Shown here piece after piece: positions 167-2,080 of a DNA stretch of 12,885 nt. A program made the position numbers and the translations under genes. The notes beneath the pieces are model-generated. The model searched no databases and had not been told where the DNA came from. It saw only the letters and a list, made by a program, of their open reading frames with translations. The DNA lies in contig JBBSWJ010000015.1 of NCBI GenBank assembly GCA_038046345.1, forward strand, positions 1 to 12,885, given 5' to 3'. Every line of letters begins with the position of its first letter. Position 1 is the stretch's first letter. Source of the DNA: Nanobdellota archaeon (lineage in GTDB: Archaea > Nanobdellota > Nanobdellia > SCGC-AAA011-G17 > JACPNG01).

Positions 167-2080
167 CTATATCTGGTGATTTAAGAATACAATCTTTACA
201 CCACGTATCTTTTTTATCCTGTTAATAACATGGGATATGTGATCTAAATCTTCTGGTATAAACCCTATATCACATTCTACTATACCATTTGCATTTGCCT
301 GCGCTCTTGCAGGATCAACATTAACATTCGCTGCTGCTATAGTGTTTAATATATCTGCAAACAATCCAACACGGTCATCTGCTATAATTTTTAACATGAT
401 ATGAAACTTGCAATCTTCATTCCAAGATGCTTTTGCCAGATTTTTCTTTAAATCTTTTTGCATAAAATGCGGACAGTCAAATTTATGTACAGTATAACGT
501 AGCTTACTGGAAGGATATGCTATTATTTTATCGTTTGGTATTGGGTGACAACAACGCGATAATTTAACCACCTTATTGCTCACCCCGTCAATTAGAACTA
601 TAGACCTAGCCAGCTTGTTTAATGTATTTATAGTTGAGCTAACATGTATTGGGATCCCGCCGCTTACTCTGATAAACCTGCGTATTTTAGATTTTGCTGT
701 TGTTGTTTTTACAATCTTCAACCAGTCTCTTTTAGGGGATGGTGTTTTAGAAGTTAAAATATTAATTATATCCCCTGTTTTTAGTAAATACCTTAAAGGC
801 ACTATCCTTCCATTCACAACAGCACCATTACACCTGTCCCCAATACTAGTATGTATTGCATATGCGAAATCTATAGCGCAAGAGCCTGCTGGTAAGCTAA
901 CAACATCACCTTTAGGGGTCATTACATATATCTCATCATCAAATAAGTCTATTTTAAGAAATTCCATAAACTCTTTTGTATTCTCTGATCCTTTTTGCCA
1001 TTCTAATACTTCTCTTAACCATGATAATTTTTTATCAAAGTTTTTATCACCGGCAACTTGTTTATACCTCCAATGAGCCGCAATACCCTCTTCTGCAGTC
1101 GCGTCCATTTCTTTTGTTCTTATCTGAAATTCTACTGGCTGTTTTAGTGCTACAACTGCTGTATGCAAAGATTGATATAGATTTTTTTTGGGCATGGCTA
1201 TATAGTCTTTAAATTTTCCATGTATTGGCGGCCATAAGCTATGTATAACTCCAAGTGTTTCGTAACAGTCTCTTGTTTCTTTTACTATAACTCGCAGCCC
1301 AATAAGATCATTTACTTCTTCAAAAGCCCTGCCTTTGCTAATCATTTTCTTGTAAATGCTATAAAAATGTTTTGGACGTCCAATTATTTCTGATTGTATT
1401 TTTCTTTTGCTTAATTCTTTTTCAAGTATCATGATTAGCTTATTGATATCCTTCTCTCTATCCTCTCGTTTTTTCCCAAATCTTAGTTTAAACTTCTGAT
1501 AAATAGCTGGTTCAATATATTTGAAGCTTAAGTCTTCTAGCTCCCATTTTAAAGAAGCTATACCTAATCTGTAAGCTAATGGCGCATAGATATTTATTGT
1601 CTCTTTTGCCATTTTAAGTCTTCTATCTTCTGATAAAAAACTTAATGTGCGCATGTTATGCAGTCTGTCCGCTAATTTGATTAGTATAACTCTTAGATCT
1701 TTTGCTGTAGCTATCATTAGCCTCCTTATAGCTTCTGCAGAAACTTCATCATCTGATCTGTAAGTTAATCCGGTGATTTTTGTTACACCTTCCACTAGCA
1801 TAGCAATTTCTTTACCGAATTTTTTTTCTAAGTCTTTTATTGAACATTTGGTATCTTCTACAGTATCATGTAACAATCCTGCTGCGATTGTTGTAGCATC
1901 AAGTCTGTGGGATGCTAGAATTCCTGCAACAGCTAATGGATGAATAATGTATGGCTCGCCTGATTCTCTCAGAGTGTTACGATGTTTTTCCTCTGCGAAG
2001 TCATAAGCTTCTCTGATGATGATTAAATCTTTTTTGTTAAGGTATTTTTCAAGCTCTGATTGCAGTGTATCAATATCCAT
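167..2080 (-). CDS. rel: Long RelA/SpoT homologue, probable bifunctional (p)ppGpp synthetase/hydrolase (Rel type)
   Basis: HD domain (HRNTLRESGEPYIIH, LLHDTVEDT, KLADRLHNMRTL); synthetase (GRPKHFYSIYKKM, DLIGLRV, KFKDYIA, YQSLH, EFQIRT, GIAAHWRYK); TGS (VMTPKGDVVSLPAGSCAIDFAYAIHT); Zn finger (CCHPIPND...H...C); C-terminal ACT-like region. The ORF-track start at 2083 is TTG; the in-frame ATG at 2080 gives 637 aa. Confidence 0.96.
   Translation of the reverse strand: MDIDTLQSELEKYLNKKDLIIIREAYDFAEEKHRNTLRESGEPYIIHPLAVAGILASHRLDATTIAAGLLHDTVEDTKCSIKDLEKKFGKEIAMLVEGVTKITGLTYRSDDEVSAEAIRRLMIATAKDLRVILIKLADRLHNMRTLSFLSEDRRLKMAKETINIYAPLAYRLGIASLKWELEDLSFKYIEPAIYQKFKLRFGKKREDREKDINKLIMILEKELSKRKIQSEIIGRPKHFYSIYKKMISKGRAFEEVNDLIGLRVIVKETRDCYETLGVIHSLWPPIHGKFKDYIAMPKKNLYQSLHTAVVALKQPVEFQIRTKEMDATAEEGIAAHWRYKQVAGDKNFDKKLSWLREVLEWQKGSENTKEFMEFLKIDLFDDEIYVMTPKGDVVSLPAGSCAIDFAYAIHTSIGDRCNGAVVNGRIVPLRYLLKTGDIINILTSKTPSPKRDWLKIVKTTTAKSKIRRFIRVSGGIPIHVSSTINTLNKLARSIVLIDGVSNKVVKLSRCCHPIPNDKIIAYPSSKLRYTVHKFDCPHFMQKDLKKNLAKASWNEDCKFHIMLKIIADDRVGLFADILNTIAAANVNVDPARAQANANGIVECDIGFIPEDLDHISHVINRIKKIRGVKIVFLNHQI

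Follow-up and report, generated by a model that had tools for sequence, protein, structure and literature searches.

The closest described systems are the bacterial Rel enzymes of known structure (PDB 6yxa, 7oiw, 1vj7 and 8fr8_I), in which a hydrolase (HD) domain is followed by a synthetase domain, a TGS domain, a zinc finger and an ACT domain. E. coli-type RelA (5iqr, 5kps) and SpoT (NF008303; 7qpr) belong to the same superfamily and have the same domain order; monofunctional RelA is distinguished by a degenerate HD site and an ExDD motif. The conserved His of the TGS domain reads the 3' end of the tRNA, the alpha-helical (AH) domain between the TGS domain and the zinc finger runs along the A/R-tRNA in bacterial complexes, and the bacterial zinc-finger domain contacts rRNA (RelA-ribosome structures 5iqr/5kps).

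Atkinson et al. (2011) listed archaea as being without long RelA/SpoT homologues (RSHs). Li et al. (2021, PMC8407392) have since reported RelA/SpoT genes from 42% of Woesearchaeota as well as from further DPANN groups and explained them by transfer from Bacteria; that paper gives percentages and a supplementary tree only, with no domain anatomy. Homologues of the RSH described here are also already annotated by NCBI. The novelty that an earlier note on this DNA claimed for such a gene was thus overstated, even though reviews of 2021 and 2023 still call (p)ppGpp enzymes rare in archaea. What is new is the adjacency of the gene to RNA polymerase (RNAP) genes and the origin of this adjacency by rearrangement, a bacterial sister group with an AH domain of intermediate length, and heterogeneity at the RxKD/ExDD site.

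Domain anatomy of the window RSH

The window (the whole stretch of DNA analysed, 12,885 bp) is contig C15 of an 821 kb archaeal genome in 35 contigs that is 97% complete and 0.03% contaminated. The GC content of the window is uniform at approximately 34%, equal to that of the genome. The RSH gene and its parts are as follows (P0001 numbering for residues):

167..2080, minus strand: long RSH (Rel-type) coding sequence, 637 aa, from the ATG at 2080 to the TAG stop at 169-167; the identical 637-aa gene call is made in independent assemblies
1559..2008, minus strand: HD (p)ppGpp hydrolase domain (Pfam HD_4, 1e-45), with H48, H72-D73, E76-D77, D139 and N143
1058..1381, minus strand: RelA_SpoT synthetase domain (Pfam, 3.4e-41), with R236, K238, D259, KFKD 290-293, YQSLH 303-307 and E318-Q320-R322-T323
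752..931, minus strand: TGS domain (Pfam TGS, 2.3e-21) with DFAYAIH (H411)
569..742, minus strand: AH-domain remnant, one helix (aa 461-475) and a disordered linker (477-491), from PDB alignment, AlphaFold2 model and the lack of a PF19296 match
449..568, minus strand: zinc-finger / ribosome-intersubunit domain (C511, C512, H533, C537), aligned to 8fr8_I 651-791; PF28438 RelA_RIS on the identical protein
188..406, minus strand: ACT/RRM domain (Pfam ACT_4, 8.3e-13), with a beta-alpha-beta-beta-alpha-beta fold in the AlphaFold2 model (pLDDT 86-92)

In the ORF listing the frame extends to a TTG codon (167..2083, minus strand), and the next codon, the ATG at 2080, is the start in independent gene calls. 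Residue numbers in the earlier note fit the TTG start and are one lower when counted from the ATG. The protein scores 697.8 bits against the NCBIfam model TIGR00691 (spoT_relA), above its cut-off of 499.2, and stays below the cut-offs of the equivalog models for RelA (NF008124; 448 vs 728 bits) and SpoT (NF008303; 528 vs 947 bits). Pfam matches cover residues 26-175 (HD_4), 235-342 (RelA_SpoT), 385-444 (TGS) and 560-632 (ACT_4), with E values from 1e-45 to 8e-13. The initial description of a long RSH is borne out by Pfam, NCBIfam and a motif check, which recovered the domains and every motif named: HD, ED, RxKxxxS..K, D259, KFKD, YQSLH, EFQIRT, DFAYAIH and CC..H..C. H411 aligns to the His within IDFSYRIHSEIG of the Rel in PDB 6yxa.

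The window RSH shares the domain order of bacterial Rel, together with all tested catalytic and sensor residues and the RxKD-like motif KFKD. Identity to the Rel of 6yxa is roughly 55% by eye over residues 11-472, and the C-terminal part aligns to 8fr8_I. Ribosome-bound RelA has the same TGS His and zinc finger; unlike RelA, the window RSH keeps an intact HD site and has KFKD instead of ExDD (many members of its clade have E-F-D-D). Unlike bacterial Rel, it has an archaeal host, with a ribosome and an RNAP distinct from the partners in bacteria.

The window RSH is also shorter than bacterial Rel (637 vs 705-760 aa), and its AH domain is reduced by approximately 75 aa (linker of 59 vs 134 aa). 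The AH model PF19296 has no match in it, the AH region comprises 25 aa in the PDB alignment compared to 104 aa in 8fr8_I, and the AlphaFold2 model (mean pLDDT 81) has a single helix at 461-475 followed by a disordered stretch. The same is seen throughout the archaeal clade described below: the CC.P motif follows the end of the TGS domain at a distance of 51-60 aa (median 59), whereas the median in bacteria is 134 aa. Across the clade, approximately 75 aa of the AH domain between the TGS domain and the zinc finger have been lost, and one helix is left. The earlier description of a "complete" bacterial-type RSH therefore holds for the HD, synthetase, TGS, zinc-finger and ACT domains, but not for the AH domain.

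Conservation and descent in Archaea

Of 301 high-quality genomes from the class Nanoarchaeia (DPANN), to which the window genome belongs, 136 have an orthologue, closed one-contig genomes included, and its presence within the class follows an all-or-none pattern by family. Within the family, 12 of 16 genomes have an orthologue at 40-64% identity, and such orthologues are also present in several further families of the order. The nearest relatives of the window RSH, at 50-64% identity, are found in the same archaeal family, two-contig genomes among them; an NCBI entry with the name Candidatus Nanoarchaeia archaeon has exactly the protein sequence of one family member.

A phylogeny had been proposed in the earlier note to separate a monophyletic archaeal clade from a recent transfer, and the result favours the former. 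In a FastTree analysis of 287 RSHs, 45 archaeal loci and 15 unlabelled proteins (approximately 594-648 aa) form one clade with a support of 99, and no long bacterial form falls inside it. In an IQ-TREE analysis (LG+C20 PMSF, 83 rows, AH columns removed), the archaeal rows fall to the same side of a branch whose SH-aLRT values are 96-98. Path lengths are 0.8-1.3 within the family and approximately 2.3 substitutions per site to the nearest bacterial proteins; the gene is not a recent capture.

Four RSHs of uncultured bacteria (P0233, P0214, P0235 and P0175; 670-702 aa) form the sister group of the archaeal clade (node support 96). Their assignment to bacteria comes from the two sister-RSH contigs examined, which encode DnaE, an ECF sigma factor, PilZ and a transglycosylase; a chorismate synthase adjoining a sister RSH has named relatives at no more than 59% identity, from mixed phyla. 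Like the window RSH, the sister proteins are without a PF19296 match, and their TGS-to-zinc-finger region is partly shortened (134-138 aa vs 106 aa in the window RSH). They differ from it in retaining a longer AH remnant and in lying on bacterial contigs. One archaeal clade with a bacterial sister fits a single old transfer of a bacterial rel gene into archaea, which would have been followed by vertical descent with losses.

Residue conservation was counted in an alignment of 52 clade members. H48, H72, R236, K238, D259, Y303, H307, E318, Q320, T323, H411, C512, H533 and C537 are invariant, as is K246 of the synthetase, and D73, E76, D139, N143 and C511 are conserved in at least 96%. The HD residues are present in 50-52 members, with the exception of D77 (38/52); D405, F406, A407 and H411 of the TGS domain are found in all 52, and the zinc-finger Cys and His residues are kept in 51-52. 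Domain conservation in the archaeal and bacterial proteins, respectively, is.50 and.55 for HD,.62 and.61 for the synthetase,.58 and.58 for TGS,.38 and.49 for the zinc-finger domain (ZFD), and.34 and.25 for ACT. Both catalytic centres are intact, as are the tRNA-CCA-sensing TGS motif, the zinc finger and the ACT domain, and their level of conservation is close to that of the bacterial counterparts; the somewhat lower value for the archaeal ZFD counts against the explanation that we prefer. Strain variants show nine synonymous and two non-synonymous codon changes in the RSH gene, and five synonymous changes plus a TGA-to-TAA stop change in rpoA''. The active sites and sensor motifs of the RSH are under purifying selection. 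Together, the data support the view that the gene truly belongs to the archaeon and encodes a long RSH of the Rel type that looks bifunctional.

The RxKD/ExDD site (290-293) reads KFKD in the window protein and E-F-[D/K/N]-D in most clade members, with E290 in 35 of 52 and D, K or N at 292. The HD site is intact across the clade although this site varies. Because of the variation, the motif is unable to classify the clade: the argument that RxKD marks a bifunctional Rel applies to the window protein, but not to most of its relatives.

Proposed function and trigger

We regard it as probable that, taken as a whole, the locus encodes a bifunctional Rel that was acquired in an old transfer from bacteria, descended vertically with a one-helix AH domain, reached its present position by rearrangement and has its own promoter. 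Such an enzyme would make (p)ppGpp from ATP and GTP or GDP and would hydrolyse (p)ppGpp with Mn2+, and its C-terminal domains would switch it between the two activities. For the trigger, we rank uncharged tRNA as the most likely candidate, with somewhat less than even confidence; the TGS domain would read it, probably on the ribosome but in an altered geometry. Control that is independent of the ribosome and other kinds of trigger are each rated as less likely.

One alternative, which we consider rather doubtful, is an enzyme that works without the ribosome: with the AH domain trimmed there would be no A/R-tRNA docking, and a ligand or partner at the TGS or ACT domain would switch the protein in a SpoT-like manner, perhaps as mainly a hydrolase with weak basal synthesis. 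With most of the AH domain gone, ribosome- and tRNA-dependent activation may indeed fail, and the reduction to one helix is found in every clade member. Conservation of the ACT domain is relatively higher than in bacteria, and a profile search of the genome finds the window RSH to be its sole HD_4 hydrolase domain, while a second synthetase-fold protein exists. However, the TGS domain and its DFA..H motif are conserved as strongly as the synthetase and the zinc-finger ligands are invariant, as is every synthetase catalytic residue; the last point argues against a hydrolase-only role. Uncharged tRNA remains our first choice as trigger.

Guanylate kinase and HGPRTase are well-known direct (p)ppGpp targets in Firmicutes. 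Neither was found in this genome with the models PF00625 and TIGR01203, respectively, and this also counts against the preferred explanation.

The second RelA_SpoT-fold protein (P0290; contig C14, 503-1606, plus strand) has 367 aa, with the synthetase as its sole domain. Its full length is matched by the PADLOC candidate defence family PDC-S33 (E value 1.5e-105), and on this basis it may represent a toxic defence gene that resembles small alarmone synthetases.

Genomic position and significance

The RSH gene lies behind a cluster of archaeal RNAP genes, with the following features:

2150..9393, minus strand: archaeal RNAP operon (Pfam and NCBIfam), with rpoH 9166-9393, rpoB'' 7679-9169, rpoB' 5874-7682, rpoA' 3301-5868 and rpoA'' 2150-3304
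2081..2149, minus strand: 69-nt spacer from the rpoA'' stop to the RSH start, with a TATA-like TTAAAA at 2108-2103 (-28 from the ATG) and T4 runs only
107..134, minus strand: T7 and T9 runs, 33-62 nt past the RSH stop, a likely archaeal oligo-T terminator as judged from sequence

The co-orientation with rpoA'' and the spacing of 66-69 nt given in the earlier note are confirmed: rpoA'' (TIGR02389) is on the same strand, with 69 nt to the RSH ATG. The proposed link between RSH and RNAP expression is not supported by comparison with relatives. The survey for gene and synteny that had been suggested recovers the gene widely, as described above, but neither rpoA'', rpoA' nor rpoB lies within 8 kb of the RSH gene in any of 19 relatives that have it. 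No conserved RSH neighbourhood was found among these 19 relatives, in which ParA-like, HtrA-like, ThiF, VIT1 and oxidoreductase genes occur in varying order. In six family relatives, rpl30e-nusA-rps12-rps7 comes directly after rpoA''; in the window genome this block is on contig C5, and it is detached from rpoA'' also in the closest relative (G005). The RSH-rpoA'' adjacency is a lineage-specific rearrangement breakpoint of the rpoA''-rpl30e-nusA-rps12-rps7 cluster and not a conserved operon.

Genome-wide, TATA-like hexamers form a sharp peak at -32 to -27 from start codons, which indicates that most transcripts are leaderless. With a TATA matrix built from the genome's own -32 to -27 sites, the best score in the RSH spacer falls at exactly -28 and is 7.0 bits; real upstream regions have a median score of 7.5, and the 90th percentile of genic controls is 6.6. 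The RSH score lies between the 90th and 95th percentiles of the genic controls, a point against the preferred explanation. Given the TATA-like box at -28, a leaderless-type promoter of its own is probable for the RSH gene, whose transcription may be raised further by read-through from the RNAP operon.

It is accordingly improbable that the RNAP operon ends with the RSH gene, with alarmone capacity co-regulated with RNAP synthesis. Such coupling would agree with the shared strand and short gap, with a spacer that holds only T4 runs while T7 and T9 runs follow the RSH, and with a gene order kept in strains from two studies that differ by approximately 2.5-2.8% in DNA. It is opposed by the varied, RNAP-free neighbourhoods of the 19 relatives and by the broken rpoA''-rpl30e-nusA-rps12-rps7 cluster; moreover, the RNAP genes overlap by 4 nt or sit 5 nt apart, whereas the RSH gene is offset by 69 nt that include the TATA-like box.

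An assembly or binning artefact, in which a bacterial rel was wrongly joined to an archaeal contig, is hardly credible: although the gene is at a contig end and every assembly breaks approximately 120 nt past its stop, the junction at 2080-2150, for which the earlier note had advised a check, is bridged by the single Logan contigs X2 (47-4500), X4 (1820-2253) and X5 (1668-2303) from two studies and by overlapping X1 pieces (contigs from four runs in all), NCBI and ENA contigs of 68 kb (groundwater 0.1-µm samples) have the same gene order, the GC content matches that of the genome, and the closest RSH relatives are in the same archaeal family, two-contig genomes included. A chimera or contamination is ruled out by the spanning contigs and long assemblies.

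Positions 1-55 of the window are identical to the last 55 nt of contig C12. Joining the two contigs would place downstream of the RSH gene, in this order, a 148-aa ORF with no Pfam or NCBIfam match, hisS, a pair of unannotated ORFs of 532 and 231 aa, and a metallophosphoesterase; a metallophosphoesterase follows the RSH gene in G005 as well. Loose contig ends show an alternative continuation at 47-55, and positions 12831-12885 are identical to an internal stretch of C14 (3146-3200, reversed). The gene order rel-dtd-hisS is known from Firmicutes. Co-transfer of rel and hisS was considered here and dropped, as the C12-C15 join depends on the 55-nt overlap only, the 148-aa ORF between rel and hisS has no family match in Pfam or NCBIfam, and hisS is near the RSH gene in just 2 of 19 relatives, on the other strand.

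Several further elements were observed in the window. A 21-codon, Lys-rich ORF ending in CEFC (99-164, plus strand) is convergent with the RSH gene and overlaps the T-runs of the putative terminator; it has GGTGA 8 nt upstream and TTTAAATA approximately 40 nt upstream, and may be due to chance. A 118-nt tRNA gene (9414-9531, minus strand; Rfam, 44.6 bits), which was missed by ARAGORN, lies upstream of rpoH in the same orientation, ending 20 nt before it; the length of the tRNA gene implies approximately 45 nt of intron sequence. At 9732-10612 (minus strand), a gene for a 90-aa SHOCT-domain protein overlaps that for a 203-aa class I methyltransferase by 4 nt; this pair recurs in other assemblies, and a SHOCT gene is near the RSH gene in two relatives.

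Since the link to RNAP is only a rearrangement, the window adds a clade member and its anatomy but no new system. The clade itself is of wider interest. Judged by sequence, an apparently active Rel under purifying selection is kept by nearly half of the sampled Nanoarchaeia genomes, which makes the clade a concrete and cheap test case. We suggest, tentatively and as a rather unlikely outcome, that Rel of the Nanoarchaeia clade serves as a functional stringent factor, able to sense uncharged tRNA on an archaeal ribosome despite, or by way of, its one-helix AH domain. If so, ultra-small archaea would run a (p)ppGpp stringent response with non-bacterial effectors, and this would be the first alarmone signalling shown in Archaea. 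A Rel that is naturally without most of the AH domain could also show what this domain contributes in bacteria.
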